A DNA stretch of 64,000 nucleotides from an uncultured Bacilli bacterium (GTDB lineage: Bacteria; Bacillota_I; Bacilli_A; RF39; UBA660), in NCBI GenBank assembly GCA_934096295.1, contig CAKOLL010000001.1:180229-244228 (forward strand), given 5' to 3'. Of the stretch, positions 6,004 through 63,533 are shown in pieces (position 1 is the stretch's first letter; every line of letters starts with the position of its first letter). A model generated the notes under the pieces. It ran no database searches. It was not told the DNA's origin and worked only from the letters and a program-made list of their open reading frames with translations. The position numbers were made by a program, and so were the translations under genes.

Positions 6004-6025
6004 AATCCCCGTAAGTACGGGGATT
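6004..6025 (-). terminator. Terminator downstream of tRNA-Arg
   Basis: AATCCCCGTA/TACGGGGATT hairpin followed by a T-rich tract on the minus strand. Confidence 0.55.
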
Positions 6026-6036
6026 AAAACACTTTA

Positions 6037-6113: not shown

Positions 6114-6130
6114 CCATAAACATTTTAGCA

Positions 6131-9462: not shown

Positions 9463-9467
9463 ACTTA

Positions 9468-9497
9468 ATTATAATACACTATATTTACTTAAGTCAA
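9468..9497 (-). promoter_or_regulatory. Sigma-A promoter of the ileS leader (TTGACT-17/18-TATAAT)
   Basis: Minus-strand TTGACT is the reverse complement of 9492-9497. TATAAT is the reverse complement of 9468-9473. Confidence 0.55.
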
Positions 9498-9515
9498 GCC
9501 TTATTTTAACAATTT

Positions 9516-9998: not shown

Positions 9999-10013
9999 TT
10001 TTAACCCTCCTTG

Positions 10014-45240: not shown

Positions 45241-45853
45241 TTTTTTCCTCCATCAACGTTTTTACTGGTTTATATGTCATCCTATAATTATCTAAAATAC
45301 CATATTTTTTAATATTTTCAAGATGTTTTTTTGTTGGGTAACCTTTATGATCTTTAAAGCCATATTCTGGATGTTCTTTATCGAGTTCATACATCATTTC
45401 ATCACGAGTTACTTTAGCTAAAACACTCGCAGCGGCGATACTAAGGGATAGTGCATCACCATGGATTATAGCCTCGGAATTTTCAAGGGGAAGCGGCATA
45501 GCATCTGTTAATATAAATTCTGGCTTAACATTTAAATTATCTATAGCCATTAACATGGCTTTTCTACTTGCCTCGTAAATATTTATTTCATCAATAGTTT
45601 TGGCATCTACTATCCCTATTCCATAACTTATTGCATCTTTTTTTATTATCTCAAAAAATTTATCTCTTTTTTTTTCACTTAATTGTTTGGAATCATTCAA
45701 GCCTTCAAGTTTATAATTTTTAGGCAAAATTACTGCAGCTGCTACAACAGGCCCACATAATGGTCCACGCCCTGCTTCATCTGTGCCAGCTATTAAATTA
45801 ATTCCTTTTTCATATAATTCTTTTTCATATTTTAATAAATCTACTTCTTCCAT
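45218..45853 (-). CDS. rnhB: Ribonuclease HII
   Basis: 211 aa with LIAGTDEAGRGPLCGPVVAAAVIL, the DEAGRG active site. Confidence 0.9.
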   Translation of the reverse strand: MEEVDLLKYEKELYEKGINLIAGTDEAGRGPLCGPVVAAAVILPKNYKLEGLNDSKQLSEKKRDKFFEIIKKDAISYGIGIVDAKTIDEINIYEASRKAMLMAIDNLNVKPEFILTDAMPLPLENSEAIIHGDALSLSIAAASVLAKVTRDEMMYELDKEHPEYGFKDHKGYPTKKHLENIKKYGILDNYRMTYKPVKTLMEEKNEELVKE

Positions 45854-46761
45854 CTATCAAATGTTACTCCTTTTAGTGCACCACTCACTAAATCATTATA
45901 CACCTTATTTGATATTTTTTCATAGTCTATTTCACCATCTTTTTCAAAATAATTAAATTTTTGCGCTAAAGATGTAAATATTTCGTTTGGATCATCACTA
46001 ATTTCGATATTATATTTTTCTTCTAATTGTTCTTTATAGTAATTTTTAAAGAAGGTAATTATGTAGCCACCTATATCGGTCATATTTAAAATTTCCATCT
46101 TTATTGTGGCAGTTGATGCTAAGCTTAAAGCTTCCGTATTGTCTTCAATTTTAGGCCAAAGTATTCCCGGAGTATCTAACAATAAGAAGCCCGAGTTTGT
46201 TTTAAGCCAATTTACTTGCTTAGTTATCCCTGGTTTATTTCCCGTATTGGCTACTTTTTTGCCAGCCAATTTATTTATAAGGGTACTTTTTCCAACATTA
46301 GGTATTCCAACTACTCCAATTTTAATTTCTTTACTTTTAAGGCCTTTATCATTTCTTTTTTCTTGTATAGGTTTTACAACCTCATTTGTTAACTTTATTA
46401 ATTTTTTATAGTCGTCATTATTTGTTAAATCTAATAATATTACTTTATAACCTTTTTCTTCATAATACTTAGCCCATTTATTTGTTTCTTCTAGATCACA
46501 TAAATCTTTTTTAGTCATAACTAAAATTCGAGGTTTAGCCTCAAGGATGTCGTCCATGCCTTTTAATTTTGAAGATGATGGCATTCTTGCATCTACACAT
46601 TCGTAGATTACATCTATTAGTTTAATTCTTTCTTTAATTTCTCTTTTTGCTTTTACCATATGTCCCGGATACCAATTTATACCCGTAGACGGTATGACTT
46701 TTTCTTCACTATTATTTTCTCTTTTTTCTTTTCTTTCTTTTCTTTTTTGATACATGTTCAT
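45841..46761 (-). CDS. rbgA: Ribosome biogenesis GTPase A (YlqF)
   Basis: 306 aa. INWYPGHMVKAKREI, circularly permuted G-motifs (TKKD...GIPNVGKSTLINKL), lysine-rich N-terminal tail. Confidence 0.85.
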   Translation of the reverse strand: MNMYQKRKERKEKRENNSEEKVIPSTGINWYPGHMVKAKREIKERIKLIDVIYECVDARMPSSSKLKGMDDILEAKPRILVMTKKDLCDLEETNKWAKYYEEKGYKVILLDLTNNDDYKKLIKLTNEVVKPIQEKRNDKGLKSKEIKIGVVGIPNVGKSTLINKLAGKKVANTGNKPGITKQVNWLKTNSGFLLLDTPGILWPKIEDNTEALSLASTATIKMEILNMTDIGGYIITFFKNYYKEQLEEKYNIEISDDPNEIFTSLAQKFNYFEKDGEIDYEKISNKVYNDLVSGALKGVTFDRWKK

Positions 46762-46773
46762 TTTTTCACTTCC

Positions 46774-47817
46774 TTATTCATTATCGCTATTATTTTCATT
46801 TAAATATTTATTATAAAATTCATCCATTGAAGAAATGTATTTTTGATCTTGTATAACTCTAAATTTTTCATATTCTTTTTCAGCTTTTTCTACTACTTCT
46901 TTATGTGATATACTGCCACTATTATTTAATACTTCTTTTCTTCTAAACTTTAATAAATCATCAGTTGCATCTATCCATTCTTTCATTGTCATAACATGTC
47001 TTTGTTTTGCTTCATCTTCGGCAAATACTAAAAACATATTTGTTAAATCTTTTAAATTGTTCATTTCTTCTTCGTTTAAATAATTTTTTGCAATAATCAC
47101 ATCATATTTATATATTAAACCATCAGGAGAATTTTTCCAAGTTGTTAATCCCATATGCTCTTCTTTTGAATTAGCCCTTTTAAAAATAAGTTCCGCAGCA
47201 GTATGTCCACTTATAGCATAGTGCAGCTTATTTTGAACTATTTTAAAGAAAGTATAAGCGTCTTCTGATTTTGGATTGTAATCTGCTGCTGTTGCAATAA
47301 ATAAATCAGTGATTTTTTGATATGCCATTCTTTCACTTACTCTGATTGTTTTGATACGTTCTAATAATTCATCAAAATATTTTGCATCATATTTATTTCC
47401 ATTTATAAAACGTTCATCATTTAATGCAAAACCCTTTGTCATATATTCTTTTAATATTTTTGTTGCCCATATTCTAAATTCTGTTGCTTTTTTAGAATTA
47501 ATTCTATAACCCACAGCAATTATAGCATCAAGACTATAAACTTCAGTATTATAGTTTTTTCCGTCAGGTGCAGTTATTTCCATTTTGGAAACAACTGAAT
47601 TTTTATCTAATTCGTTTTCTTCAAATATATTTTTTAAATGTTTTGATATTGCTGGTACACCAACCTCGAAAACTTTTGACATACCTTTTTGTGATAACCA
47701 TAAAGTTTCATCTTTATAAATAGCATCTACTATAATATTACCTTCACTATTTTTATATATAATTAATTTATTATCTTCCATCAATACTCTCCTTTCCTTT
47801 AGTTTTTCATAAGTCAT
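46774..47817 (-). CDS. RhuM family virulence/defence-island protein
   Basis: 347 aa. IIYKNSEGNIIVDAIYKDETLWLSQKGMSKVFEV...YNTEVYSLDAIIAVGYRINSKKATEFRIWATKILKEYMTKGFALNDERF matches the RhuM N-terminal signature. Confidence 0.75.
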   Translation of the reverse strand: MTYEKLKERRVLMEDNKLIIYKNSEGNIIVDAIYKDETLWLSQKGMSKVFEVGVPAISKHLKNIFEENELDKNSVVSKMEITAPDGKNYNTEVYSLDAIIAVGYRINSKKATEFRIWATKILKEYMTKGFALNDERFINGNKYDAKYFDELLERIKTIRVSERMAYQKITDLFIATAADYNPKSEDAYTFFKIVQNKLHYAISGHTAAELIFKRANSKEEHMGLTTWKNSPDGLIYKYDVIIAKNYLNEEEMNNLKDLTNMFLVFAEDEAKQRHVMTMKEWIDATDDLLKFRRKEVLNNSGSISHKEVVEKAEKEYEKFRVIQDQKYISSMDEFYNKYLNENNSDNE

Positions 47818-47912
47818 ACACTTATCAATTTAAATTAAAATTTTATTAAAAAAATGTCCCAAAATGTACAAAGCATTTAGTAAAAATTTCTTTTATTTTC
47901 AAGTATTCAAGT

Positions 47913-48021
47913 GTGTTTTTTCATGACTCCCCACTTACCACGAAACGGAAACCTTTGAAAAACTTTCTTGGCTACCATTATTTTCTTTTCTTGTCTCATT
48001 TTTCTTTTTTGATACATATCC
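47913..48021 (-). pseudogene. Diverged duplicate of the rbgA 5' end (first ~36 codons, a gene remnant)
   Basis: Minus-strand ATGGATATGTATCAAAAAAGAAAA... (MDMYQKRKMRQEKK...GKWGVMKKHT*) parallels the rbgA start ATGAACATGTATCAAAAAAGAAAAG (MNMYQKRKERKEK...INWYPGHMVKAK). 22 of 24 nt are identical at the start, then roughly 65% identity over about 110 bp. Confidence 0.4.
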
Positions 48022-48028
48022 ATTTAAA

Positions 48029-48625
48029 TCACTTTCTTTTTTCAAAATCTAAATCAGTTACACTATATCCAAGTTCTTTTAATTTATTATATATTATACT
48101 AGGAGAAATACCTAATAAAGTATTATAATCACCTTCAATTTTATCTATAAACAGAGATGCTTTACCTAATGGTACAAATCCACAACATTTAAAAATTTTT
48201 TCTTCATTATTTACATACCATTCTATTTCTTCTTCTTTTATTTCATTAAAATACACATCTGCTTTAGAACTTGAACATATAATTTTTTCTTTATATAAAT
48301 CAATTAATGTTATTCCCGTATATGCTGTACATTTATTATTTGACAATTCTTTTAAATTTAAATATGCTTCTTCTTTACTTTTTGGTTTCTCATATATTTT
48401 ATTATTACAATATATAATGGTATCTGCAGAAATAATTATCGCTTTGCTATCAATTTGTTTCTTAACAGATTTAGCTTTATTTAACGAAAGCTCTTCAACA
48501 TATTTATTAGGACTAGTTTTATTACTTTCTTCAGGTTCATTGCTAGTAATAACATCATATTTTAGTCCTATCATATTAAAAATATCTTGTCTTTGTTTTG
48601 AAGACGAAGCTAATATTATTCTCAT
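48029..48625 (-). CDS. maf: Maf-like nucleoside triphosphate pyrophosphatase / septum formation protein
   Basis: 198 aa with the MRIILASSSKQRQDIF N-terminus typical of Maf. Confidence 0.85.
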   Translation of the reverse strand: MRIILASSSKQRQDIFNMIGLKYDVITSNEPEESNKTSPNKYVEELSLNKAKSVKKQIDSKAIIISADTIIYCNNKIYEKPKSKEEAYLNLKELSNNKCTAYTGITLIDLYKEKIICSSSKADVYFNEIKEEEIEWYVNNEEKIFKCCGFVPLGKASLFIDKIEGDYNTLLGISPSIIYNKLKELGYSVTDLDFEKRK

Positions 48626-48730
48626 TTTATACCACCTTTACTTTATTCCTTCAAGTTTCTTATTTTCTTTATTTTCTAATTGTTTCTTTTCTCTTTCTAA
48701 TTCTTTTAAGCTCTTTTTAGATGTTGGCAT

Positions 48731-49026
48731 TTATTCAGGCATCATTCCACCAATATCTGCAATTGCCTTTCTAACTTTTTTTCCTTCACCAGTTCTTATT
48801 GGCTTGTTGATTTCAACACCCCAATCTTCTTCGATTGAAACTCTATTATTTGCAGCTAAAACTGCTTTAGCTATTACTTTTTTGAAAATTTCTCCAATCT
48901 TTGTATTCTAAAACTTTAAAAAGTTCTCTAGCGAACCAATACTCGTTTTTATATTCATCAAAATGTTTTATATTCTCAAAAATATTATTTGTGTATTCTG
49001 TTTCAATTATATCCATTATTACCTCC
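48731..49026 (-). pseudogene. DinD / Bro-N-like small gene with a +1 frameshift in an A6 tract
   Basis: Frame A gives MDIIETEYTNNIFENIKHFDEYKNEYWFARELFKVLEYKDWRNFQKSNS*. Frame B continues ...KKVIAKAVLAANNRVSIEEDWGVEINKPIRTGEGKKVRKAIADIGGMMPE*. The frames join at the T6/A6 homopolymer (48878-48883). Strong RBS GGAGG before the ATG. No ORF-track entry exists because of the frameshift. Confidence 0.4.
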
Positions 49027-49056
49027 ATTTCTGTCACTCGTATTTCTTGTAATTTT

Positions 49057-49545
49057 TTATTTAATTAATCCACCATTACATTTTAATTCATATATTTTTT
49101 TATTATTTTTGTATATAGTTTCAATTCCACTAAAACAGTTAATATCCCCGATTACTTCAAATGAATATTTATATTCACCATTTATCAATTCTTTTGGGCC
49201 TCTTACGGGAATTATATCTTTATCTTTTCCGACATTCATTAATGCCGGACGTAATGCTTTATCCATTGCTTCTTCTCCTAGAGTTTCATCTAGAGTTACA
49301 CCATAATAATTCATAGCCCAATAAGTTTTTCCATCTACATAAACTACCTCTTCTCCGATAAAATTAGTACCCCCAAAATATGTATCATGATATAGCATTT
49401 TATCTTTTTTATATTCATAATCCTTAGAATTTTGCCTTGTATTTGATACTTTTTCTACATTTTCATTTGCATATGTTTGTTTTTTTGCTTCAATTAAGAA
49501 TTCTTCTAAATTAATCATTTTTTTACCTTCTTTCTTTTTTACCAT
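49057..49545 (-). CDS. Hypothetical protein
   Basis: 162 aa soluble protein. Family not recognised. Confidence 0.45.
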   Translation of the reverse strand: MVKKKEGKKMINLEEFLIEAKKQTYANENVEKVSNTRQNSKDYEYKKDKMLYHDTYFGGTNFIGEEVVYVDGKTYWAMNYYGVTLDETLGEEAMDKALRPALMNVGKDKDIIPVRGPKELINGEYKYSFEVIGDINCFSGIETIYKNNKKIYELKCNGGLIK

Positions 49546-49846
49546 TCTTTATGATAATATTTACAATTAAAATTTTCTTCTTTTTACAAAAATTTATTAT
49601 ACCATTTATTTATATTATCTCATAGTTTTTTTATTTAATTTTATCTTTTCTTTACATTATTATTTATTATCTATTAATTATTTAACTAATTTTTTGGTAT
49701 TAATTTAATTTCTTGTTAGACAATAATTTTTCAATGTAATTATCATAACATGTGTTCGGCTACTAATCAAGACGTAATTTGTATTTTTTACAAATTTTTT
49801 TTAGAAACAACAACATGAAATTAAAACTAAAAAAATTCCCAAATAT

Positions 49847-52800
49847 TTATTGAGAATTTTTTACTCTATGCAATGTGGAATCATAATGTATAGATTCTTT
49901 TGAATTAGTAAATGTTTTATTATAAGCGTTAATAACAGTTTTTATAAAAGTCATACCAGTATCAACTTTTAAAGATACTTCTTCTTCACTTATTCTTAAG
50001 AATTTTGCTATTTGTTTAATAGAATATTTTTCATTAAATATTCCTAGAAATAAATATAATATCAGTTTATAATCTTCTGGCATAAAATCTATTATGACTT
50101 TATAATATTTTTTTAAGTTTTCTGCATCGTTATTAAGGTTCGTTGTTTCTTCTTTTGAGGTTCTGCTTTTTATTTTTTCTTTTAAATTATTTATTTTAAT
50201 TCGAAGAATATTTTTTTCATTTTTGGTAAGATAAGAAGTATCATAAGTTTTAGTAAAATCACTACCAAAAACTTTAACAAATAATGAATATATTTTAGTA
50301 TTTTTACGTTCACTATTAAATATATTTAAAACTTCTTCATAAGTTATACCCAAAATAATATTAAGTGTCTTGCCATCATTTCTGCTTTTTCTGTTTCTTG
50401 TTATATTTTGTCTACTTTTATTGTTTATTCTATTTTTTATTTTTTCTAAGGTTTTAGCTAATACCGCTAAAGAAACATTATTTATAAACTTTAAATCGAG
50501 ATTTTCTCCGAAAGCCTTAGTAAGCACTTCCAAATTTGTAGGGGTTGCTACCAATTTTATATCGCTTAGGCTTTCATTAATTAATTCTTCTAGAGTTTTA
50601 CCTTTATAAATATTATCCTCTTGAGCTATTTTACTTAATATATCAAGCCTTCTTAATAAAAGGGCATAATCGTTTTCAGAGAATTTACTTTTATCAAGGA
50701 ACTCATTTAAATCATTACCAAAAGCTTTATAAAGATCTTCATTTTTATCTAAGGCATTCATAAATCTTTCTGTGTCTTCATATGATAGTCCCAATATTTC
50801 ATTTAATTTTTTAGAATTGAATATATCAGTTTCTTGTTGTTTTTTATCCATAAGTTTACTTATTTTGCTTACTACTTTGCTTTTTTTATCTATTCTTTTT
50901 TTTATTTTTTCTAAGGTTTTAGCTAATATTGCTAAAGAAACATTATTTATAAACTTTAAATCGAGGTTTTCTCCGAAAGCCTTGGTAAGTACTTCCAAAT
51001 TTGTAGGGGTTGCTACCATTTTTATATCGCTTAGGCTTTCATTAATTATCTCTTCTAGAGTTTTACCTTTATAAATATTATCTTCTTTGGCTATTTTACT
51101 TAACATACCAAGTCTTCTTAATAAAACGGCATAATCTTTTTCAGAGAATTTACTTTTATCAAGGAACTCATTTAATTCATTGCCAAAAGCTTTATAAAGC
51201 TCTTCATTTTTATCTAAAGCATTTACAAATCTTATTGTGTCTTCATAGGATAATCTCAACATTTCATTTAATTTTTTAGGACTGAATGTATCTGCTCCTT
51301 GTTCTTTTTTACTCATAAGTTTACTTATCTTGCTTACTACTTTGCTTTTTTCATAATAACTTAAATTATCTAAATTACAAATTCCTTTTCCATCTGGGCC
51401 AAAAGCTTTTATAAATATATTTGATATTGTGTTGTCTTTTCTTGTTAATTCTTTCCATAGTAAATCTATATTATCTAAAGCAAATATTTCATTTAAAGTT
51501 TTGCCACTATACTCTTTACCATAACTTTTGTAATCATTATTAATTATGTTTTTTACTGCTTGTTTTAGATATGTTGCCTCTTTAGAATTCAAATTATCTT
51601 TATAAACTTCATCTAAATTTGGACCAAATGCTTTGTAAAATAAAGTTCTAATATAAGTTGAAACTTTTGCACAATAATCAAAATCATTAACCTTTTCTTT
51701 TCCAATTAAATCTATTAAGGTTTTACCATTTAAAATGATTCTTTCATTTTTTTCACTTTGAATGCTTTTTGTGTTATTTTTCAAGAAATTTTGCATTTTT
51801 CCTAAAGCTTTTTCTTCAATTTGTCTTACTCGTTCTCTAGTCATTTTGTACATTTTGCCAATTTCTTCAAGAGTATAATCTTCTCCATATCTTTTGGTAA
51901 TTATGTCTTTTTCTCGTTCAGTTAAACATTCTAAAAATGTTAATACCGCTGTTTTATTTACAATGGCTTCTTCTAAATTAATTTTATCTGGTACAAAATT
52001 ATAACGATTTGTTTCTGTATCATCTTTTACCTCGGCATCTAAAGATGTTAAAAAGCCAATATTATTTACTAGTTCTTCAATATTAGCACAATCTTCATTC
52101 ATTTCATCTGCTATTTCTTTAATTGATACTTCTCTTCCTAAAGTATTAGTTAATTTTTCCTCAACTTTCATAACTTTTCGGTATTTTTCTTGAACACGGA
52201 CGGGAATTCTTATATTTCTTTCTTTGTTATGAATGCTACGCGTAATCAAAGATTTAATCCAGTAATATGCATAACTTGAAAATGAGGAACCATAACTAAA
52301 ATCATAATAATCAATTGCTTTAGACATACCAAAGAATCCTTCATTAACTAAATCAAGTAATGTCATATCCGTAGATGCTATTTTTTTTGCAATATATACA
52401 ATTAAACGAATATTTCCCTCGATAATTAAATTACGGTATTTATCGCAAATATCTACTTTACCAAGTGATTTAGCTTCTTGATAAATTTTAATATATTTTA
52501 AAGTATCTTCTTTTGATAATATGGGTAAATCCGACATGTCTTTAAAAAACAAATCAACTGAATCTAAAGAATTTATATTTATTTCTTTATAATCAATTAT
52601 TTCTTCTTTAATTAAATTTTTTATTATTCCGTAACTCGTAAGGATATTTCCATTTAGTTCTCCGTACCTTCTAATAAGTTCTTCCTCTGTATATTTTTTA
52701 TTAGAAAAAAAGCTAGATAAATAACTATCTATAGTAGGATTTTCACATAATAATGCCATGAATTTAATACCATTTTCTATATTTTTATCTATTAAAATAT

Positions 52801-52906
52801 TGCTAAAATCTTGTAGGGATATAGTTTTATTATTTATTTTTTCCACTAAAACTTTTATAATTTCTTGCATAACAAACCTCCTGATGAATTTATTATAACA
52901 CGGCAA
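49847..52906 (-). CDS. Giant sigma-70 family protein, paralogue of the 801-aa one. A sigma-A-like core is followed by about 640 aa of C-terminal repeat modules and a terminal HTH.
   Basis: 1019 aa. N-terminal segment is paralogous to the 801-aa protein (IDSYLSSFFSNKKYTEEELIRRYGELNG... against IDNYFAQLLRGKNKYTEDEIYKRFGDING...). Region 2 is EGNIRLIVYIAKK...DLVNEGFFGMSKAIDYY...FSSYAYYWIKSLITRSI...RNIRIPV. Region 4 is TLEEIGKMYKMTRERVRQIEEKALGKM. Many [KY]AFG-x-[ND]L modules follow. Terminal KYSIKQIAKFLRISEEEVSLKVDTGMTF is HTH-like. Confidence 0.75.
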   Translation of the reverse strand: MPCYNKFIRRFVMQEIIKVLVEKINNKTISLQDFSNILIDKNIENGIKFMALLCENPTIDSYLSSFFSNKKYTEEELIRRYGELNGNILTSYGIIKNLIKEEIIDYKEININSLDSVDLFFKDMSDLPILSKEDTLKYIKIYQEAKSLGKVDICDKYRNLIIEGNIRLIVYIAKKIASTDMTLLDLVNEGFFGMSKAIDYYDFSYGSSFSSYAYYWIKSLITRSIHNKERNIRIPVRVQEKYRKVMKVEEKLTNTLGREVSIKEIADEMNEDCANIEELVNNIGFLTSLDAEVKDDTETNRYNFVPDKINLEEAIVNKTAVLTFLECLTEREKDIITKRYGEDYTLEEIGKMYKMTRERVRQIEEKALGKMQNFLKNNTKSIQSEKNERIILNGKTLIDLIGKEKVNDFDYCAKVSTYIRTLFYKAFGPNLDEVYKDNLNSKEATYLKQAVKNIINNDYKSYGKEYSGKTLNEIFALDNIDLLWKELTRKDNTISNIFIKAFGPDGKGICNLDNLSYYEKSKVVSKISKLMSKKEQGADTFSPKKLNEMLRLSYEDTIRFVNALDKNEELYKAFGNELNEFLDKSKFSEKDYAVLLRRLGMLSKIAKEDNIYKGKTLEEIINESLSDIKMVATPTNLEVLTKAFGENLDLKFINNVSLAILAKTLEKIKKRIDKKSKVVSKISKLMDKKQQETDIFNSKKLNEILGLSYEDTERFMNALDKNEDLYKAFGNDLNEFLDKSKFSENDYALLLRRLDILSKIAQEDNIYKGKTLEELINESLSDIKLVATPTNLEVLTKAFGENLDLKFINNVSLAVLAKTLEKIKNRINNKSRQNITRNRKSRNDGKTLNIILGITYEEVLNIFNSERKNTKIYSLFVKVFGSDFTKTYDTSYLTKNEKNILRIKINNLKEKIKSRTSKEETTNLNNDAENLKKYYKVIIDFMPEDYKLILYLFLGIFNEKYSIKQIAKFLRISEEEVSLKVDTGMTFIKTVINAYNKTFTNSKESIHYDSTLHRVKNSQ
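50390..51350. repeat. Near-perfect tandem duplication (2 copies of about 465 bp) inside the 1019-aa sigma gene
   Basis: Two protein repeats of about 155 aa (SKVVSKISKLM[SD]KK...YKAFGN[ED]LNEFLDKSKFSE...TKAFGENLDLKFINNVSLA[IV]LAKTLEKIK) with about 90% identity. Matching DNA strings, e.g. TTTTTCTAAGGTTTTAGCTAATA at about 50441 and about 50906. Antisense ORFs 50370-50609 and 50772-51074 are near-identical. Confidence 0.75.
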
Positions 52907-52924
52907 TATGTTTATTAAAAGTTT

Positions 52925-52947
52925 TTTTCAGATAAAAAGTTCTAGAA
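52925..52947 (-). promoter_or_regulatory. Candidate extended -10 promoter (TGTTATAAT) for the 1019-aa sigma gene, preceded by the GT2 terminator
   Basis: Minus strand reads ...TTGCCGTGTTATAATAAATTCATCAGGAGGTTTGTT-ATG. Upstream hairpin GTTCT...AGAAC plus T-run. Confidence 0.4.
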
Positions 52948-52954
52948 ACTAATT

Positions 52955-53890
52955 TCAAGAACCTTGGTTTAATCCGTAATTTTTTAAATTATCTATCTTT
53001 TTTATTATCTCAACATTTTGTAAAAAGTATTTTTTTACATATTTATTTTCTGGCCATAATGGAAAATTATCATTAATGTATTTTGTACATTTTTTTATAT
53101 CTTCACTATTAAAATTGGATGTTCTCATTAATCTGTTTGTAGTTCCAAATAGTACATGACTTATCGCTGCAAATTCAATTTTTTCTTTAAATTCATCAAA
53201 AATTTCTCTTTTTTTAGCAAAATCAATTATAGAATCCATCGCTATTAATGTATCAAGTTGATTTTGAGTATTAGATTGTAGGGATGAATCACTATGAACT
53301 ACATAAGTATATAAAGCTTCATCAACATATGAAACTGAATTATTTATCAATATGACTTTAAAAATAAATTCTAAGTCTTCTGCAATTTTTAAGTTTGAAA
53401 AAGAAATATTGTTATCTACAATTACTGATTTATTAAATAGTCTAATATCGACGGATGGACTTTGTAACAAATCTAATTCTTCTTTTGTTCTTTGTGTATT
53501 ATTTCTAATCCCATTTACTTCTTTAAATCCTTTTAACATGCATGAAAAACTATTATCTTCATTAATATTACTATGTAAGACTTCAAGACAATTTTTTTCT
53601 ATGTAATCATCACTATCTAGAAAGTATAGGTATTTACCTTGGGATTTAGATATACCTAAATTTCTAGTATAACCGACTCCTTCATTTTTAGTATTTTTGT
53701 AATATTTAATTCTTTTATCTAACTCTTTATATTTTAAAATAATACTTTCAACATTATCTATAGAATAATCATTTATAATTATTATTTCTATGTTATTATA
53801 AGTTTGCTCTATAACCGACTTTATGCATCTTTCAAAATAATTTTCATTATTATATACAGGTATTATTACACTAATTAAATCTTTTTCCAT
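52955..53890 (-). CDS. Family 2 glycosyltransferase
   Basis: 311 aa. ISVIIPVYNNENYFERCIKSVIEQTY...IIINDYSID is the GT-A N-terminal signature. DSDD motif. Confidence 0.8.
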   Translation of the reverse strand: MEKDLISVIIPVYNNENYFERCIKSVIEQTYNNIEIIIINDYSIDNVESIILKYKELDKRIKYYKNTKNEGVGYTRNLGISKSQGKYLYFLDSDDYIEKNCLEVLHSNINEDNSFSCMLKGFKEVNGIRNNTQRTKEELDLLQSPSVDIRLFNKSVIVDNNISFSNLKIAEDLEFIFKVILINNSVSYVDEALYTYVVHSDSSLQSNTQNQLDTLIAMDSIIDFAKKREIFDEFKEKIEFAAISHVLFGTTNRLMRTSNFNSEDIKKCTKYINDNFPLWPENKYVKKYFLQNVEIIKKIDNLKNYGLNQGS

Positions 53891-53904
53891 ATACCCTCCT
53901 TAAA

Positions 53905-54330
53905 CTAATTAAAAATTTTTAAGAATTCTTCTAGATCATTTTGATTATTAAATATTTCTTCAAAAATATTGTATAAAGAGTCTGTTGCATCAAATTCTCC
54001 GATAGCATAACATTTTTTGTTCATTCCATATGCTACACCAGCTTCTATGTGGCCTGACTTTCCAGCAGGTAGAACAAGTAAGAAATTTTCAGAATTTTTT
54101 TCTGCTTCCATATCGCTTTTAAAAACATTTAAAACTGTTTTACTTTTTAAGCCTAAACTTTCAAACTCTTGTTGTTTATCTAAAGCGTTCATATTTGTTC
54201 CATATGAGCTATAAGAATCTTCCTTTAAGAAACAATAATATGTAATTTTATACTTATCAAACAAATCACAAATCTTTAATATATTATCTTTATTTCTAGC
54301 TCTACCCGCAATAAAAAATTTATATTTCAT
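53905..54330 (-). CDS. Nucleoside 2-deoxyribosyltransferase-like small protein
   Basis: 141 aa. KFFIAGRAR (the Rossmann-like start of NDT proteins) and the C-terminal LLVLPAGKSGHIEAGVAYGMNK, which resembles the catalytic E-x-G-x-A-x-G-K region. Confidence 0.45.
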   Translation of the reverse strand: MKYKFFIAGRARNKDNILKICDLFDKYKITYYCFLKEDSYSSYGTNMNALDKQQEFESLGLKSKTVLNVFKSDMEAEKNSENFLLVLPAGKSGHIEAGVAYGMNKKCYAIGEFDATDSLYNIFEEIFNNQNDLEEFLKIFN

Positions 54331-55156
54331 CTATATTGATACCTCTTTCTTTGAAACTATTATTAATCTTTTCCATATCTCGATATTTACCCGTAGTTAT
54401 TTCTGTTTTGTAATCATCAAACTCAATGTTATCTATATTACTTTTTATTTCTTTATCATTATCATATGGTATACTTACAAGTTCAAAAGAAATTGGATTT
54501 TTTTCATTCATGGAGTTTAGGTTACCATTTATAATTAAATAATTTGCTAATGTCGTAAAGTTATTATTACCATCTTTTTCATCATTTCTAATAACATCAA
54601 TAGCATTTCCTACTGAACCGGTATTTATAATTGTTCTATTATATATTCTTTGTAAGTATGCTGTATGAATATGACCATAAACTACTACATCTGCTTTATT
54701 TTGAGATTCAGTATTTTGACTAGGTAAAAATAAAGAATATGATTTTTCAATTTTATCTATATTACCTACGAAACCATTTATTTTTTCTGGAGTAGCATGA
54801 AAAAATCTTACTAGTCTTCCACTTATATACATTTCATGAGAAAATGGTAGATTCGATAAATAATTTCTGTCTTCATCTGTAATTTTACCTTTATTCCAAA
54901 TAATTCTTTTTTGTTCTGTTTCATTAAATTTATTAATGTCTACATCTAATGAAAAAAACTCATCACAGTTTCCTCGTAAAACCATTTGACAATTTTCTTT
55001 AATTAATTCTAAACATTCTTTTTGATTAGAACCTTTGGCAATTATATCTCCGAGACAAATTATTTTTTCTATGTTTCTTTTTTTGATATCTTCTAAAACA
55101 CTTTTTAAGGCTTCTAGATTACCATGGATATCTGATATTACTGCAATACTTGACAT
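54320..55156 (-). CDS. Calcineurin-like metallophosphoesterase
   Basis: 278 aa. IAVISDIHGN...LGDIIAKG (GDxHG/GDxxDRG motifs), GHIH. Confidence 0.75.
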   Translation of the reverse strand: MSSIAVISDIHGNLEALKSVLEDIKKRNIEKIICLGDIIAKGSNQKECLELIKENCQMVLRGNCDEFFSLDVDINKFNETEQKRIIWNKGKITDEDRNYLSNLPFSHEMYISGRLVRFFHATPEKINGFVGNIDKIEKSYSLFLPSQNTESQNKADVVVYGHIHTAYLQRIYNRTIINTGSVGNAIDVIRNDEKDGNNNFTTLANYLIINGNLNSMNEKNPISFELVSIPYDNDKEIKSNIDNIEFDDYKTEITTGKYRDMEKINNSFKERGINIDEI

Positions 55157-55208
55157 ATTATTACCTCACTTATATTAAGTATAACATGTTATTACGATTA
55201 ATAAAAGA

Positions 55209-57044
55209 TTATTTTTTTCTTATTAAACTAGCTTCTTTAGGACAACCATCGTAAAAACTATCTCTTTGAGAATCCTTAACACAATATTCTAAATTATGAT
55301 AATTCCTTTCTAATAAAGTTTTAATTTGTTCACGTTCTAATAATGGAGCGTATAATTTCCTTAATGAAGTATTTTCTTCTAGAAAACTTTTCATGACTAT
55401 TTTTAATCTAGGAAAACAGGCTATAGAGATTTTGTTATTTTTTAGCAAAAATCCATATTTAGCTAACTCTAGACTTGGCAATATTATTTCTGGTAATTCT
55501 TCGTTTTTCAACAAGAAATAATCTCCGACTTCTGCTAAAGATGGAGCATATAAAATTCTACATTTTTCATTATCAGAAAGAAAACTATGTCCTACTTTTT
55601 CTAATTTAGGTAAATAAACCTCTTGTGCTTGGCATACTTTTAGAGAAAAATGTCCTACTGTTTTTAAGGATGGAAAAAACAATTTATTTATTGACTCATT
55701 TAATTCTAAAAACTCAGAACCAACTATTTCTAGTTTAGGCATATTTACCCTTTTTAGAATAACGTTATTAGTCATAAAACAATCGCCAATTTCAACTATA
55801 TTTGGTAAATCAATTTCTTTTAGTCCAAAGTTTTTATATAAAAAATATGAACCTATACTTTGACAATTATTAATTGATAAAATTTCAAGAAATGTTGCAT
55901 TTTTTAAAACGTAATCTCCGATAACTTTTGTAGATGGTGATCTAAATTCAATTATTTCTAAATCTTTTGTTGATAAAAATCCTTTGGGGAGTTCATTTAC
56001 ATTTTCTAAAAACATTTTTTTGATTCTATTAAAATGGTTTACAATTAATTTTGCATATTTGCCATCAGCATTAAAGATTTCAACAATTTTATTTTCTTTA
56101 TCTTTTGTAATTGTAATTTTTTCAATATGATTAAAAACTCTAGGAAATGTTTCTATATAAACCTCATAATCGTTAATATATTCAATATATGATGCATAAG
56201 TATCTATGTATTTTGATTCTAATTCTATTATGAAATTATCAATTACTAAATATTTATTTTTATCAAAATGTTCTACCTTAAAATTTTTAATTATAATATT
56301 ATCTGGGCAATAATAAGTATTATTTCTTTCAAAATTGTATTTATAGTATTTCCCATCATTAGCTAACACATAATTTTCAAGTTCAAATTTAGAAGATTGA
56401 TGATTTTGTTTTAATCCATACGTTTTTTCAAAACTTTCAGTTAAACCTTCAACTATTCTATCTAAATCATTTCCAAAGGTTGCATCGGGATTGTCTACAC
56501 TATGATTATATCGGTTCTTTATTGATAATATATGTGATTTATCTTTAGTAAACTGAATACTTATTACAGATGTACCATAAGCATCTTCACGTTTTGGATT
56601 TTTATAGTCTTCTCTTTTTATTTCAGCAACATTATCTTTAACTGCAAAAAACACTCTGCACTCGGATAATCTTTCTTGCCTAAATGTACATAGTTTTTCA
56701 CCTTTAGCATAATACTTTTTAAAAGCCTGTACTTCTTCTTCTGTATGACACTCTACTAAAGTATACCCAACTGATTTCATCAACTCCTCTGGAGTTTTAT
56801 TACATTTATTTTGTTTTATATCCAAATTTTTTGAAACATATATAAATTCAATAAATTGTGACTGTTTATGATTTTTCTTTATATCATTTAATAAATTATG
56901 ATTTTCGTGAAATTTACTTAACAATCTACTTGATAAAAATCCGGGTGTTTCTAAAAGCGATGCAAAATTAGCTCTACAAAAGTGCATCATATCTTCCCCA
57001 AATTTCTTTTTTATTATTTTTAAATCATCCATCTTTACCCCCAA
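55209..57044 (-). CDS. Cytoplasmic protein with an unknown N-terminal 330-aa domain and C-terminal BspA-type leucine-rich repeats (LRR_5)
   Basis: 611 aa. No signal peptide. C-terminal half has about 8 reiterated units of about 23 aa ending in [IV]G-x-x-F[LS], e.g. IVEIGDCFMTNN, LEIVGSEFLELN, LKTVGHFSLKVC, LEKVGHSFLSDN, LAEVGDYFLLKN. Confidence 0.6.
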   Translation of the reverse strand: MGVKMDDLKIIKKKFGEDMMHFCRANFASLLETPGFLSSRLLSKFHENHNLLNDIKKNHKQSQFIEFIYVSKNLDIKQNKCNKTPEELMKSVGYTLVECHTEEEVQAFKKYYAKGEKLCTFRQERLSECRVFFAVKDNVAEIKREDYKNPKREDAYGTSVISIQFTKDKSHILSIKNRYNHSVDNPDATFGNDLDRIVEGLTESFEKTYGLKQNHQSSKFELENYVLANDGKYYKYNFERNNTYYCPDNIIIKNFKVEHFDKNKYLVIDNFIIELESKYIDTYASYIEYINDYEVYIETFPRVFNHIEKITITKDKENKIVEIFNADGKYAKLIVNHFNRIKKMFLENVNELPKGFLSTKDLEIIEFRSPSTKVIGDYVLKNATFLEILSINNCQSIGSYFLYKNFGLKEIDLPNIVEIGDCFMTNNVILKRVNMPKLEIVGSEFLELNESINKLFFPSLKTVGHFSLKVCQAQEVYLPKLEKVGHSFLSDNEKCRILYAPSLAEVGDYFLLKNEELPEIILPSLELAKYGFLLKNNKISIACFPRLKIVMKSFLEENTSLRKLYAPLLEREQIKTLLERNYHNLEYCVKDSQRDSFYDGCPKEASLIRKK

Positions 57045-57091
57045 AAAGCAAATTTATTATATCTTAAATTTATTAGTAAGTAAATGAAATA

Positions 57092-57616
57092 TTATTTCAA
57101 ATCATAAATTTTCATTTCACAATTTTTTAATCCTCGATTTAAAAACTTACCATTTTTTATGCCTTCAAAATAGGCACTAAACGCTTTAGAAACACCACTA
57201 TGAGCTACTATTAAAACATTTTTATAGTTTTTTTCTTTTAAATTATTCAAAAATGTGAATATTCGAGAAAAAAATTCTTTTATATTTTCACTCGTTCCAT
57301 ATTGGATAGTAGTATAATAATTCCAATATTCTTCCCTATCTGTACTTTCTAAAGGCTGTTCATTTAAACTGCCACAATCTCTTTCTTTTAATAATTTATC
57401 AACTACAATATCTTTATTATTTGTTATAATTTTTGCAGTGTGTTTTGCTCTTTGATATGGAGATGAGAAAATTACATCAAATTCTATATCTTTTATACTT
57501 TCTTTAAGTGCTTCAGCTTCTTTTATACCATTTAGAGTTAAATCTTCATCAACTGAACTATATTTTTTCATTACATTATGAGGTACTTCACCATGTCTTA
57601 CTAAATAAACTTTCAT
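57092..57616 (-). CDS. Histidine phosphatase family protein (phosphoglycerate-mutase-like)
   Basis: 174 aa. VYLVRHGEV, the RHG catalytic motif, and a later H in AHSGV. Confidence 0.8.
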   Translation of the reverse strand: MKVYLVRHGEVPHNVMKKYSSVDEDLTLNGIKEAEALKESIKDIEFDVIFSSPYQRAKHTAKIITNNKDIVVDKLLKERDCGSLNEQPLESTDREEYWNYYTTIQYGTSENIKEFFSRIFTFLNNLKEKNYKNVLIVAHSGVSKAFSAYFEGIKNGKFLNRGLKNCEMKIYDLK

Positions 57617-57618
57617 TT

Positions 57619-58137
57619 TTAATTCTCCATCTTTAAATAATAATTATTTTCTAATAAATAGTCTTCTAAGGTTTTACCTTTGTCTAATTCAATTTTAAAA
57701 TGTTTATTATTTTTAAATTGTTCATATCTTTTGTCATAACTATTATATATCTTTTCTATATAATCCATGTTATTGCCTCTTTTAATAAATCGGTTTTTAT
57801 ATTCTTTTAACGCTTCTTTACTTGGAAAACACAAATAATAGTCAATACCATATTTTTCATAAATTGGTAAAATTTCATCAGGATGTATCCAAACTAAAAC
57901 AATATCATAATTTTTAATAGCAGATTTTATTGCCTTAATGTAATTTTCAGGAAACTCTTTATTTTTTATCCTATTTTTAGTACCTTTTAATTTTTCTAAA
58001 TCAGTTTTATCAACATTACTATAATCCCATTTATAAATACTACTTTCTATATCAATAACATTTTTATATTTTCTGGCTAATGTAGTTTTTCCCACTCCAG
58101 CAAAGCCAGCGATTACTAAACCTTTTTTATTTTCCAT
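57619..58137 (-). CDS. P-loop NTPase (small kinase-like ATP-binding protein)
   Basis: 172 aa with Walker A GLVIAGFAGVGKTTLARKY. Size and layout resemble nucleoside/nucleotide kinases. Confidence 0.55.
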   Translation of the reverse strand: MENKKGLVIAGFAGVGKTTLARKYKNVIDIESSIYKWDYSNVDKTDLEKLKGTKNRIKNKEFPENYIKAIKSAIKNYDIVLVWIHPDEILPIYEKYGIDYYLCFPSKEALKEYKNRFIKRGNNMDYIEKIYNSYDKRYEQFKNNKHFKIELDKGKTLEDYLLENNYYLKMEN

Positions 58138-58186
58138 GATACCTCCACTTAAAATAAGTATATCACAAATCGAATTCTAATTCATT

Positions 58187-59911
58187 TTAAATTTTATTAA
58201 AAAATAATTGTCTGTAGTATTCATTATTTTTTAACAAATTTTCATGAGTATTTACATCTTCGATTATTCCATTTCTTAACAAAATAATTGAGTCAGCAAA
58301 TGTAACTGTATAAACCTTATGGGTTACAATAATTATTGTCATTTTTTCTGATAGTTTTTTTATTATTTTCATTATTTCATTTTGGGCATTATTATCTAAA
58401 GAACTAGTTGATTCATCTAATATCAATACATTTGTTTTTTTACATAAAGCTCTCGCAATACTTAATCTTTGTTTTTGTCCTCCGGATAATTTACATCCGC
58501 CTTCACCGACTACAGTGTTAATACCATCTGGTAAACTTAATATATATTGTTTTAAGTATACCTCATTACATAATTCTATTATTTCATTATCCATTATGTT
58601 TGGATTAATTAATTTGAAATTTTCTTTAATAGACAAATTAAACAAATATGGGAATTGATTTATTATAGTTATATTATCCCGTATAAATTTTTCACTTAAT
58701 CGTTCTATTTCTATACCTTTAAATTTGATTATCCCACTATCTTTATAGTATAAATGACTAATTAAATTTATAAGCGTAGTTTTTCCACTACCACTTTCTC
58801 CTACTACAGCAATAGTTTTTTTACTACCAATTTTAAAAGATATATTTTTTAATGCTTTTTTTTTGGCATTATATGAAAAATTAACATTTTCGAATTGAAT
58901 ACTGCCATCATAATTTATTATAGTATCTTTACCCCAAACATCTTTTATATTCTCATTTTCTTCTAAAAATATAAGAAGCCTATCGGCATTTATTTTATAT
59001 CCTGCTAATTCATATCTTAAATCTCCTAATTCTTTTGCAAAAGAATATGTATGTTCTTTATATAAATAGCAAGTATAAAATATTGTTGGAAAAATATATC
59101 CATTTTTTAGTTGGAAACACCCTATTAATATAAAAATGAAATCAATTAAAGCTATTAAAAAATCTGTTAATTTATATAATGCTATACCGACATAATATTC
59201 TTGGTTATCAGTTTTTATATACTGTTTTTGGTATTTTTCGATTAACTTTAATATAGATTTATCACAATTTAATGTTTTAATATCTTTTACAGCTTTAATA
59301 ATTTCCATTATTTTCGAGTTTACTATTTCTCTTTTACTTTTAACAATTGGCTTTAACTTTGCCAAAAAGTATATTCTAATAGAATAAATTATAGAAATTA
59401 TAAATATAGATGTTAAAACAAATACCCCTAAATAAATGTTTAAGAAAAAAATAAAAATAATATAAGCGATTCTTCTGATAATATTAACTGCTAACTCACT
59501 TATTTCTTTAAAAGATTCGGAGATACTATTAATGTCAGAAATTATTCTAGTCATAATTTCACCACTAGCGATATTTTCATAATAAGCAAATTTCATATTT
59601 AAAATGCTATTTACCACTTTTTGCTCTATATCAAATCTTACTTTATTTTCTATATTTTTATATAAAAATGTATTAATGTAAGATAAGAAACAACTAAAAC
59701 TAAGAATACTAAAATTTATTAAACTTGATTGAATAACTTTGTCTATTTCAACATTTATAATACTTGTAATTAGTCTAGCCGTTAAAATAGCACTATAAAA
59801 TGAAATTGATGCTTTTAATAATAATATTGTTATAAATAATATATATAAGAAAAGATATTTTTTGTAAAATTCTAATATTATTTTTGTACTAACTCGTTTT
59901 ATTTTAGCCAT
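58187..59911 (-). CDS. ABC transporter, fused permease plus ATP-binding exporter
   Basis: 574 aa. Six N-terminal TMs, then GESGSGKTTL (Walker A), LSGGQKQRLSIARAL (signature), ILDESTSSLD (Walker B). Confidence 0.85.
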   Translation of the reverse strand: MAKIKRVSTKIILEFYKKYLFLYILFITILLLKASISFYSAILTARLITSIINVEIDKVIQSSLINFSILSFSCFLSYINTFLYKNIENKVRFDIEQKVVNSILNMKFAYYENIASGEIMTRIISDINSISESFKEISELAVNIIRRIAYIIFIFFLNIYLGVFVLTSIFIISIIYSIRIYFLAKLKPIVKSKREIVNSKIMEIIKAVKDIKTLNCDKSILKLIEKYQKQYIKTDNQEYYVGIALYKLTDFLIALIDFIFILIGCFQLKNGYIFPTIFYTCYLYKEHTYSFAKELGDLRYELAGYKINADRLLIFLEENENIKDVWGKDTIINYDGSIQFENVNFSYNAKKKALKNISFKIGSKKTIAVVGESGSGKTTLINLISHLYYKDSGIIKFKGIEIERLSEKFIRDNITIINQFPYLFNLSIKENFKLINPNIMDNEIIELCNEVYLKQYILSLPDGINTVVGEGGCKLSGGQKQRLSIARALCKKTNVLILDESTSSLDNNAQNEIMKIIKKLSEKMTIIIVTHKVYTVTFADSIILLRNGIIEDVNTHENLLKNNEYYRQLFFNKI

Positions 59912-60829
59912 TCAATACTCCTTAGTAATATTCTTTATTACCTTTGAAATTAGTATCTTATTATTTTTTTTATAGTTATCATTTATAAAATTTATTTTGT
60001 TATATAACCTTTTTATTTCTTTATTTTCTAAATATTCTATAAATATATTTATCATATTAAACATGTAATTATAGTTCATGCTAAAAAAAATATTGGTAGG
60101 AATATCAAATAAAAATAAACCATCTAAATATCCTTTTGCAAAACTAAAGTTTTTTTTATCAAGTTCATGATCACTTCGAGCATATGACCACATTAAACTT
60201 CTTGATACTTCAATGTAATTTGTATCCTCTATATCAATAGCATAAATTAAACCATTTGATATTAAAAAATTACTCGGCTTAATATCTGTATGTCCATATA
60301 CCATTAAACTATTTTTTATAAAATGAAAATTTTTTTGTAAATAACAAATAGTAAAAGTTATAAACTCTTGGGCAGTTTTTTCTAACTTTATATCTTTTAT
60401 CAATTTTTCTAGTTTTTTTATCTTTTCTAAAATCTCATTTTTATATGTAGTTATTGCATTTCTATCAACTTTTTTATCTATGTATTTATTTCTTAAATGA
60501 CTATATTTTTCACCTATTTTAAATCCTTGTTCATAAATAAATTTAGAATCGTACTTATTAATATTTTCTTTTAAATTGTTAGCTTCTATATATTCTTCGA
60601 TGATATAATAAAATTCATCAAAATTACCAATTTCTATAATATGAGGATGAGGAATATTACCTTCATTTAATATATTTTCTAAATCACTATTAATTTTTTG
60701 TTTTGTGATTTTCAAAAAATATTTTTTATTGTTTTTAATAAACAAATATTTTTCATCTCCAGAATAACCTTTTGTTACTATACTTATACTATGAACTTTA
60801 TTTAAAAATTTTATTTTATTATATTGCAT
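59912..60829 (-). CDS. Phosphotransferase enzyme family protein (APH / choline-kinase-like kinase fold)
   Basis: 305 aa with catalytic-loop-like GHTDIKPSNFLI and a following IDIED. Start abuts the ABC exporter stop. Confidence 0.55.
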   Translation of the reverse strand: MQYNKIKFLNKVHSISIVTKGYSGDEKYLFIKNNKKYFLKITKQKINSDLENILNEGNIPHPHIIEIGNFDEFYYIIEEYIEANNLKENINKYDSKFIYEQGFKIGEKYSHLRNKYIDKKVDRNAITTYKNEILEKIKKLEKLIKDIKLEKTAQEFITFTICYLQKNFHFIKNSLMVYGHTDIKPSNFLISNGLIYAIDIEDTNYIEVSRSLMWSYARSDHELDKKNFSFAKGYLDGLFLFDIPTNIFFSMNYNYMFNMINIFIEYLENKEIKRLYNKINFINDNYKKNNKILISKVIKNITKEY

Positions 60830-60915
60830 AACTTTGACTCCTCGAAGTAATTATAACATGCTTTAATTAAGGGATTGATATAAAATTAAGAATATTGTTA
60901 TTGGAAAAACTTATA

Positions 60916-61794: not shown

Positions 61795-61862
61795 TTATTA
61801 CACCTCTTTATTAAAAAGCGATTTTATTATATACTAAAAAAAGGCAAAAGTAAACAATCGCC

Positions 61863-63530: not shown

Positions 63531-63533
63531 TTT

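Follow-up and report, generated by a model that had tools for sequence, protein, structure and literature searches.

In the genome of an uncultured Bacilli bacterium (GenBank assembly GCA_934096295.1, contig CAKOLL010000001.1, positions 180,229 to 244,228), a gene for a RhuM family protein lies between maf and rbgA, the latter encoding an essential ribosome-assembly GTPase, and a sequence resembling the start of rbgA is found on either side of it. This raises the questions of how rhuM came to occupy this position, what the unit that carries it is, and why the start of rbgA is present twice. The 64-kb stretch containing the locus, referred to here as the window, was therefore analysed, and the junctions were compared across 130 related loci (designated by L-numbers). 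All locus coordinates given for the window refer to its minus strand. Taken as a whole, the data are probably best explained by a recombinase-less mobile cassette, occupying positions 47935-46670, that was inserted site-specifically in the rbgA start.

Duplication of the rbgA start and extent of the inserted unit

On the minus strand, the genes of the region are arranged in the order DUF5680, a dinD/Bro-N-like pseudogene, maf, a short open reading frame (ORF), rhuM, rbgA, rnhB, a sulfatase-family gene and topA (Table 1). The rbgA start is found at 48023 and again at 46761, with rhuM between the two copies. The 18-mer ATGTATCAAAAAAGAAAA has exactly two occurrences in the window, which are these two starts. 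When both copies were aligned locally together with their ribosome-binding site (RBS), the score was 65, far above the 22 ± 11 of random window pairs. Scores of 65 or more were obtained for 7 of 2000 random pairs, a set that includes draws overlapping the two loci. At the DNA level the upstream and downstream copies of the rbgA leader are identical at 66 of 97 positions (68%). A duplication of the rbgA 5' end around the RhuM gene, proposed in an earlier note on this DNA, is thus confirmed. The upstream segment, described there as 110 bp in length, is indeed a copy of the rbgA start, but only for 88 nt (48023-47936), the last bases of which are TGGTA; the final ~25 nt of the short ORF belong to the left end of the inserted element.

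The inserted unit extends over 1,266 bp (47935-46670) and consists of a non-coding left end, rhuM, an RBS and a 92-nt replacement leader. At either end, the junction falls on TGGTA, within the codons for Trp and Tyr of the conserved motif WYPGHM. These limits were assigned because independent comparative breakpoints agree with the junction seen in L031. Homology to relatives with other leaders (L003 and the empty-site loci L007 and L008) starts at 46681-46671, cassette homology to L056 and L059 sets in at 47940, and that to L060 and L103 covers 48038-46670 and stops at 46670. L031 belongs to the genome that also provided L001, a locus with an RbgA 97% identical to that of the window, and has an intact displaced leader in which AACTGGTA is joined directly to AGTGGAAAGTCATG. 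This leader stops at ATTAACTGGTA and is followed by AGTGGAAAGTCATGAAAAAACACACTTG, the sequence found after the upstream copy in the window, and hence the left ends of the two match. The breakpoints at 47940 and 46681-46670, together with the L031 junction, bear out the proposal that an element entered the 5' end of the gene and supplied a replacement start. The core TGGTA of the attachment (att) sites is present at both ends of the unit, at 47940-47936 and at 46674-46670, where it closes the replacement leader as the left half of attR.

Insertion at TGGTA within the Trp-Tyr codons was observed in the window and at more than 30 junctions elsewhere. Every displaced leader copy ends in AACTG, AACTGG or AACTGGTA, and unrelated DNA follows. 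The core shared by attP and attB is 5-8 bp long, (A)ACTG(GTA), which suits sites of large serine recombinases, and significant dyad symmetry was found only for the att site of the L026 cassette (18/24, centred on AACT/GGTA).

At the target codon, two rbgA alleles encode Tyr where Trp is otherwise conserved, giving QYYPGHM in L008 (~9983-10030, ACAATATTATCC) and NYYPGHM in L136 (~6044-6090, AAATTATTATCC). In both, the core AACTGGTA is destroyed, and these alleles may therefore be immune to further integration.

Origin of the displaced leader

The upstream copy is identical at 81 of 89 positions (91%) to the intact leader MDMYQKRKMRQEKKNNDNQESFSKVSISW, which is in use at L131 and is borne by a cassette in L056. 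The differences include one deletion of 1 nt, in an A-run, which frameshifts the leader. As judged by this comparison, the upstream copy is the previous leader, a different allele, and not a decayed duplicate. Hence, its description as a displaced original persisting as a decaying pseudo-start was correct with respect to displacement, but the copy is mainly distinguished by its allelic type and carries a single frameshift.

If the rbgA start had been duplicated locally in tandem, independently of the RhuM insertion, and the copies had then diverged, two starts in direct orientation would be expected, and the two starts in the window are so arranged, 1.26 kb apart. However, the upstream copy resembles a leader allele used elsewhere far more closely than the adjacent true leader (91% versus only 68%), and L007 and L008 have a single leader, every extra copy being followed by foreign DNA from the same nucleotide. 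This explanation is regarded as refuted.

The earlier note had held that the duplication would be independent of the RhuM insertion if relatives lacking RhuM also had a duplicated start. L003 is such a relative, as it has no RhuM yet includes three leader copies, but each of these is tied to another inserted cassette (NUDIX, methyltransferase). Start duplication therefore accompanies cassette insertion in general and not RhuM in particular.

The leaders supplied by the elements range from ~10 to 32 codons, and leader types do not track host phylogeny. In L003 the leader of the window recurs as a displaced copy, 1.6 kb upstream of rbgA (100% identity over 68 bp), and L031 too carries this replacement leader type in a displaced position upstream of rbgA. 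L003, with an RbgA body 96% identical to that of the window, uses the short leader MNNENKTNINW, which is typical of metagenome-assembled genomes (MAGs) from rabbit gut whose RbgA is only 57% identical. In L026, a Clostridiales locus with 38% RbgA identity, three leaders were found that are 93-97% identical to the types of other lineages.

Many leaders share a near-identical RBS and first ~40 nt, and the leader of the window is preceded by rhuM, by a pseudogene of a different rhuM or by a dinD-like gene, depending on the genome. The latter finding, a reshuffling of leader and cargo combinations, would be expected if the cassette had been imported on DNA of a related strain by crossovers in the leader start/RBS and in the rbgA body, with no site-specific event in this lineage, and the conserved leader starts and rbgA body would provide the homology arms. 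However, homologous exchange only moves an existing array and cannot form a complete leader that ends exactly at TGGTA beside unrelated DNA. As the left end is common to the window and L031 while their displaced leaders differ, an extra exchange within the 88-nt segment would also have to be assumed. Import by homologous recombination is thus considered improbable.

Cassette arrays and recombinase-bearing relatives

Upstream of rbgA, the loci L003, L006, L023, L026, L056, L059 and L094 each have two to four copies of the leader, and the cassettes that these copies delimit are 0.75-7.6 kb in size. Leader copies were detected automatically, and spurious calls within host genes that precede the arrays were discarded by hand. 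L056 includes three tandem cassettes (3544-5336, 5337-7133 and 7134-10324), of which only the last, 7134-10324, encodes a recombinase, and the arrays of L094, L023 and L003 likewise include recombinase-less cassettes. On the basis of these sequences, the rbgA start is a recurrent insertion hotspot in uncultured gut Bacilli and Clostridia.

In L131, a fragment of the 3' end of an older rhuM, followed by a truncated leader (4740-4860), lies upstream of a cassette of the window type, and is evidence for successive RhuM cassettes replacing one another at one site. One of the 71 ORFs of the arrays matches the MobA/VirD2 relaxase family (PF03432, E=6e-29), which hints that some array elements can be mobilised by conjugation.

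In L006, a large serine recombinase with Resolvase, Recombinase and Zn_ribbon_recom domains is encoded directly upstream of rhuM and the leader. This recombinase gene is split by a TGA (8461-8472) at the conserved Trp of a KKW-NSEMVNSILRNENYTG motif and is otherwise intact. Use of genetic code 4 was considered for this TGA and dropped in favour of a TGG-to-TGA nonsense mutation, as intact homologues have Trp at this position. A search of metagenome contigs with the repaired L006 recombinase returned 80 loci. Wherever the contig reaches far enough, recombinases at least 73% identical to the query are encoded just upstream of an rbgA leader, with a 96% identical RhuM, a 188-aa serine hydrolase or a GNAT protein between recombinase and leader.

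The canonical autonomous unit is ~3.2 kb long and consists of the left end AAGAACGACTTATAT, a gene for a protein of the uracil-DNA glycosylase (UDG) superfamily, a recombinase gene (397 aa), rhuM and a leader with TGGTA as its last bases. The recombinase (L056 7995-9188, L059, L051 and others) likewise combines the Resolvase catalytic domain with Recombinase and zinc-ribbon domains, and it matches a PHROG integrase family. For this unit, 22 left junctions with at least 8 different displaced leaders were observed, all at TGGTA/AAG(A/T)ACGAC. The unit is 97-99% identical in nucleotide sequence across contigs, while the rbgA bodies that begin right after the junction are 67-73% identical. Given this break in identity at the junction, the sequences indicate recent horizontal spread and site-specific insertion of the autonomous unit. 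Of the 25 families listed for the 71 array ORFs, those for recombinases are all of the serine type, with domains in 10-11 of the ORFs, and none is a tyrosine integrase.

At TGGTA, the window-type left end (AGTGGGGAGTCATGAAAAAACAC...) follows six different displaced leaders, namely in the window, L031, L056, L059, L060/L103 and, as a variant, L131. It is followed by rhuM alone in the window and L060/L103, by rhuM and a GNAT gene in L056, L080 and L131, by rhuM and a gene for a DUF2441 protein in L059, and by other cargo in L088. Within the window this left end matches no Rfam family or tRNA and has no stable fold (z=0.53 versus shuffles), and a scan of viral contigs for the left-end motif gave no match.

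The absence of an integrase beside the RhuM gene, pointed out earlier, extends to the whole window and had been taken to suggest that the gene is a relic of a larger island. According to that view, a complete recombinase-bearing island integrated here and later lost all but rhuM. Autonomous elements do carry a RhuM gene, and decay of recombinases was seen, with the TGA in L006, a fragment only in L026, and split genes in L089, L094, L096 and L099. However, the autonomous element has its rhuM at the right end, between the recombinase gene and the leader, whereas rhuM of the window type begins ~150 nt after the left end, and the two RhuM proteins are only ~50% identical. Furthermore, the arrangement and spacing found in the window recur with the six displaced leaders and include no recombinase remnant. 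Loss in place is thus unlikely, and the evidence favours a small non-autonomous cassette, moved in trans or co-excised, as judged by sequence comparison.

Proposed mechanism of insertion

Insertion of the cassette would proceed as follows. The attP site would comprise the end of the cassette's own leader, TGGTA and the cassette left end, and attB would comprise the previous leader, TGGTA and the rbgA body (TCCAGGTCATATGG). Exchange would take place inside (A)A(C/T)TGGTA, at the codons for Trp and Tyr of WYPGHM. At attL, the former leader would be left next to maf and become frameshifted later; at attR, the leader of the element would be fused in frame to the host rbgA body, leaving the essential GTPase intact. 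The RBS and first 30 codons of rbgA are now encoded by the element, and rbgA lies 12 nt downstream of rhuM, with which it is probably co-transcribed. Each newcomer would shove older cassettes upstream, giving co-oriented arrays between the native promoter and rbgA.

The junctions, the independent insertions, the horizontal spread of the autonomous unit and the lack of a recombinase in the window are established by the sequences. Insertion is most probably catalysed by the ~397-aa large serine recombinase of the ~3.2-kb autonomous relatives (UDG-like protein, recombinase, RhuM or other cargo, leader). Cassettes like that of the window would be moved by it in trans or by co-excision, and the enzyme would then also act on the left-end type of the window.

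Several findings weigh against this mechanism. The 1,266-bp unit encodes RhuM alone, and a recombinase was found neither elsewhere in the 64-kb window nor inside any cassette with the left-end type of the window. The left end of the window (AGTGGGGAGTCATG...) is unlike the one in the element that encodes the recombinase. As a rule, serine integrases are specific for their sites; hence, the window type may be served by a different, unseen recombinase. In the symmetry test, the dyad symmetry that att sites should have was not significant for the canonical attP, for attB or for the reconstructed attP of the window. Neither an excised circle (expected junction ATAAATTGGTA joined to AGTGGGGAGTCATG, or GGGTATAAATTGGTA to AGTGGGGAGTCATGAAAAAAC) nor a restored empty site (expected junction TTTCGTGGTA joined to TCCGGGACATATGG, or GGTTTCCGTTTCGTGGTA to TCCGGGACATATGG) was observed. 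In addition, the conserved first ~40 nt of the leaders could allow cassettes to be reshuffled by homologous recombination.

A broader interpretation, which is offered tentatively, is that in these gut Firmicutes the rbgA start is an integron-like insertion platform operated by a small serine recombinase, at which recombinase-less single-gene defence cassettes, the RhuM unit of the window among them, would be captured, stacked and re-mobilised in trans. Under the same tentative interpretation, each cassette would bring an interchangeable RBS and N-terminal leader for the essential GTPase, and the Trp-to-Tyr alleles of L008 and L136 would represent hosts that have escaped from further integration. 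If this were so, a host that lost its most recent cassette imprecisely would not survive, and transcription of the cargo would be coupled to that of rbgA.

Region between the native promoter and rbgA

RbgA was used to scan one genome per species, giving 32 loci from MAGs of uncultured gut 'Tenericutes'/Bacilli and from more distant Clostridia, the closest relatives being UMGS686 and CAG:460. The synteny downstream, rbgA-rnhB-sulfatase-topA, is conserved among relatives, and RhuM genes of 37-95% identity are directly upstream of rbgA in at least 9 loci.

Table 1. Features of the rbgA region of the window.
Feature	Position	Strand	Description
Native rbgA-operon promoter	49596-49623	-	ATGAGA-16 nt-TGgTATAAT, extended -10; upstream edge of the variable region
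DUF5680 gene	49057-49545	-	Pfam DUF5680, E=3.4e-28; no counterpart here in L003 and L031
dinD/Bro-N-like pseudogene	48638-49037	-	Frameshifted; Bro-N match on N-terminal fragment; PDC-S13 family
maf	48029-48625	-	Pfam Maf, E=1.4e-42
Short ORF	48023-47907	-	38 codons; starts ATGGATATGTATCAAAAAAGAAAA; protein MDMYQKRKMRQEKK...KKHT*
attL left half: displaced RBS and former rbgA leader	47936-48040	-	ATG at 48023; 88 nt; core TGGTA at 47940-47936
Cassette left end, type 'LE-B'	47782-47935	-	AGTGGGGAGTCATGAAAAAACACACTTG...; non-coding; homology to L056/L059 from 47940
rhuM cargo gene	46774-47781	-	335 aa; matches to PF13310 and PDC-S05
Element-borne RBS and replacement rbgA leader	46670-46773	-	RBS GGAAGTG; ATG at 46761; 92 nt, MNMYQKRKERKEKRENNSEEKVIPSTGINW
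rbgA	46761-45841	-	Starts ATGAACATGTATCAAAAAAGAAAAG; protein MNMYQKRKERKEK...INWYPGHM
Host-derived rbgA body	45841-46669	-	From the Tyr codon of WYPGHM; Pfam MMR_HSR1 GTPase; homology to L003, L007 and L008 from 46681-46671

The native promoter is the best promoter-like site of the region (10/12 with TG) and is conserved in L003, L031, L006, L007 and L008. Promoter-like matches in the region are no commoner than in shuffles. In the uninterrupted loci L007 and L008 it stands immediately before rbgA, whereas in the window it stands before DUF5680. As the native promoter directly precedes rbgA in these two loci, DUF5680, the dinD-like pseudogene and maf lie inside the inserted region, and the block 49545-46670 separates the native promoter from the rbgA body. 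A promoter scan found no confident promoter within the window cassette, and no terminator was predicted between the native promoter and rbgA.

The DUF5680 gene, located between the native promoter and the dinD-like gene, is an insertion relative to L003 and L031. The dinD-like pseudogene shares DNA homology with intact genes of L023, L015 and L018, which are there directly before an rbgA leader, and the PADLOC match to PDC-S13 was obtained with the intact L023 homologue. The pseudogene is what remains of an older cargo gene. The dinD-like gene of L018 and L015 directly adjoins the leader with its end, whereas in the window maf fills exactly the space between the dinD-like stop codon and the RBS of the displaced leader. 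The earlier note had treated maf-rbgA as the ancestral junction and had suggested comparing it in relatives. This comparison does not support that view, since maf is upstream of rbgA in none of the 32 related genomes and the native promoter is found at 49623-49596. Judged from this synteny, maf is part of the variable region and not the ancestral neighbour of rbgA.

Further upstream, a DUF86-like gene of the window (63534-63869) matches L031 6999-7328. Its distance to the displaced leader is only ~2.7 kb in L031 but ~15 kb in the window (window 49847-63869 compared with L031 6999-9800). The ~15 kb contains co-oriented, accessory-looking genes for a glycosyltransferase, a phosphoesterase, a leucine-rich-repeat-like protein, an ATP-binding cassette exporter, an aminoglycoside phosphotransferase-like kinase and proteins of the LysR, major facilitator superfamily and GNAT types. 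A gene at 49847-52906 (minus strand) encodes a 1019-aa sigma-70-like protein with two near-identical repeats of ~190 aa (KVVSKISKLM...NVSLA.LAKTLEKIK) in its C-terminal half, an architecture that is unusual for a sigma factor.

RhuM and other cassette cargo

The rhuM ORF extends from 47817 to 46774, and the probable start at 47781, preceded by the RBS GGAGAG, gives a product of 335 aa, as is typical of homologues. The product matches Pfam Virulence_RhuM (PF13310; E=5.7e-97, 324.4 bits versus a gathering cutoff of 33.7) over profile positions 1-250 of 252 and is thus a full-length member of the family. It also matches the PADLOC phage-defence candidate PDC-S05 (E=2e-129). RhuM-like proteins have been predicted to be toxin or defence components and linked to restriction-modification and PrrC loci (PMC3710099). 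A role of RhuM in defence is likewise predicted here.

An exact-protein look-up of the window RhuM gave no match, and a sequence search of the PDB gave noise only, while gut metagenomes contain thousands of proteins that are 86-94% identical to it. The nearest RhuM proteins, P0007 (91%) and P0004 (90%), are also encoded directly upstream of rbgA. However, RhuM itself is not tied to rbgA, because widely distributed homologues of 87% identity (P0106/P0109) occupy an unrelated, stable locus in a common gut Clostridia species (L033-L050, gene 6001-7020). The order of genes there is prfA, an unknown gene encoding 339 aa, rhuM, and genes for a ZIP transporter, a low-molecular-weight phosphatase and PcrA, and neither leader nor left-end sequences were found at this locus.

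The possibility that RhuM is an accessory factor in recombination was rejected, since the slot adjacent to the leader holds a serine hydrolase or GNAT acetyltransferase gene in other units. Given that these can replace RhuM in the rbgA system, RhuM is cargo and not part of the integration machinery. Other cassette cargo includes a CBASS (cyclic-oligonucleotide-based anti-phage signalling system) cyclase with a two-transmembrane (2TM) effector in L051, and an ATPase with OLD/Gajabija-like matches in L006. Enzymes that clean up nucleotide pools or DNA bases recur in or near the arrays, namely Maf, a HAM1-like pyrophosphatase, NUDIX hydrolases and the UDG-superfamily protein encoded by the autonomous element (window 48029-48625; L054 275-871, 2389-2985 and 3681-4088; L003 8631-9185).

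Significance and comparison with known systems

The main interest of the locus lies in the array system, more than in the single RhuM insertion. An essential ribosome-assembly GTPase routinely receives its N-terminus, its RBS and probably its transcription from mobile DNA, which bears on the annotation of rbgA starts. The arrays are apparently driven by a serine recombinase and are rich in candidate phage-defence genes (RhuM, DinD-like, CBASS and OLD-like ATPase), and further defence cargo could easily be located in metagenomes by way of the rbgA site. The exact att sequences and the compact 397-aa recombinase make up a candidate tool for site-specific integration. No description of an rbgA-linked serine-recombinase array was found in the literature searched, the coverage of which was incomplete.

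The 5' end of rbgA is known as a target in streptococci. In the pneumococcal rbgA coding sequence (CDS), the insertion point of Tn5253 follows nt 20, and in Enterococcus faecalis it follows nt 17, with one Ala codon added; attL equals attB, attR is an 84-bp copy borne by the element that restores the CDS, and the N-terminus can be altered (PMC8571831). The Tn5252/Tn5253 family consists of 60-kb conjugative elements, i.e. integrative and conjugative elements (ICEs), with a tyrosine integrase (PMC4701971).

The attB lengths of 20 and 17 nt and the added Ala codon indicate that the target position of Tn5253 is probably homologous to that in the window. We take the streptococcal and enterococcal RbgA to start with M(A)TIQWFPGHM, which would place the Tn5253 site two bases past the Trp codon, like TGG TA here. 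The first conserved codons of rbgA, targeted by Tn5253 in streptococci, likewise receive much smaller elements in uncultured Bacilli and Clostridia that abound in the human gut.

The two systems are alike in targeting the 5' end of rbgA, in an attL that keeps the 5' end of the host, and in an element leader that restores the CDS. A remnant of a Tn5252/Tn5253-type ICE, or of an integrative and mobilisable element of this kind, would explain why the gene and the homologous position are shared and why the element brings a copy that restores the CDS (PMC8571831, PMC4701971). The overlap region of a tyrosine recombinase could likewise account for the 8-bp identity AACTGGTA. However, the families listed for the array ORFs include the serine type only, the spreading 3.2-kb element encodes only a serine recombinase, and no conjugation genes are present in these elements of 0.75-7.6 kb. 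The 1,266-bp unit has neither the tyrosine integrase nor the conjugation module that characterise the family, and this origin is very improbable. The system of the window further differs from Tn5253 in its arrays of up to four units and in its uncultured gut hosts. A large serine recombinase, the defining component of another class of elements, is likewise lacking in the window cassette but is present in the autonomous relatives at the same site.

Integron arrays are similar in that co-oriented, mostly single-gene, recombinase-less cassettes are found at one site below a fixed promoter. The system described here differs in having neither an IntI tyrosine recombinase nor a left end folded like attC (z=0.53), and in that insertion is promoter-distal and inside a coding sequence.

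Staphylococcal cassette chromosome (SCC) elements, including SCCmec, are the closest analogue with respect to the serine recombinase, tandem stacking and trans-mobilised defence cassettes. SCC-like cassettes that have no recombinase of their own and are enriched in genes for anti-phage defence are moved in trans by Ccr (PMC11470126). Both systems involve large serine recombinases and cassettes at the end of a conserved housekeeping gene, and tandem accumulation includes recombinase-less cassettes, but the target is the 3' end of rlmH (orfX) in staphylococci and the 5' end of rbgA here. Hence, unlike SCC, the rbgA cassettes must carry the RBS, start codon and N-terminal codons of an essential gene, and they are much smaller. 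Mobilisation in trans, which has been demonstrated for SCC, is proposed here for the rbgA cassettes.

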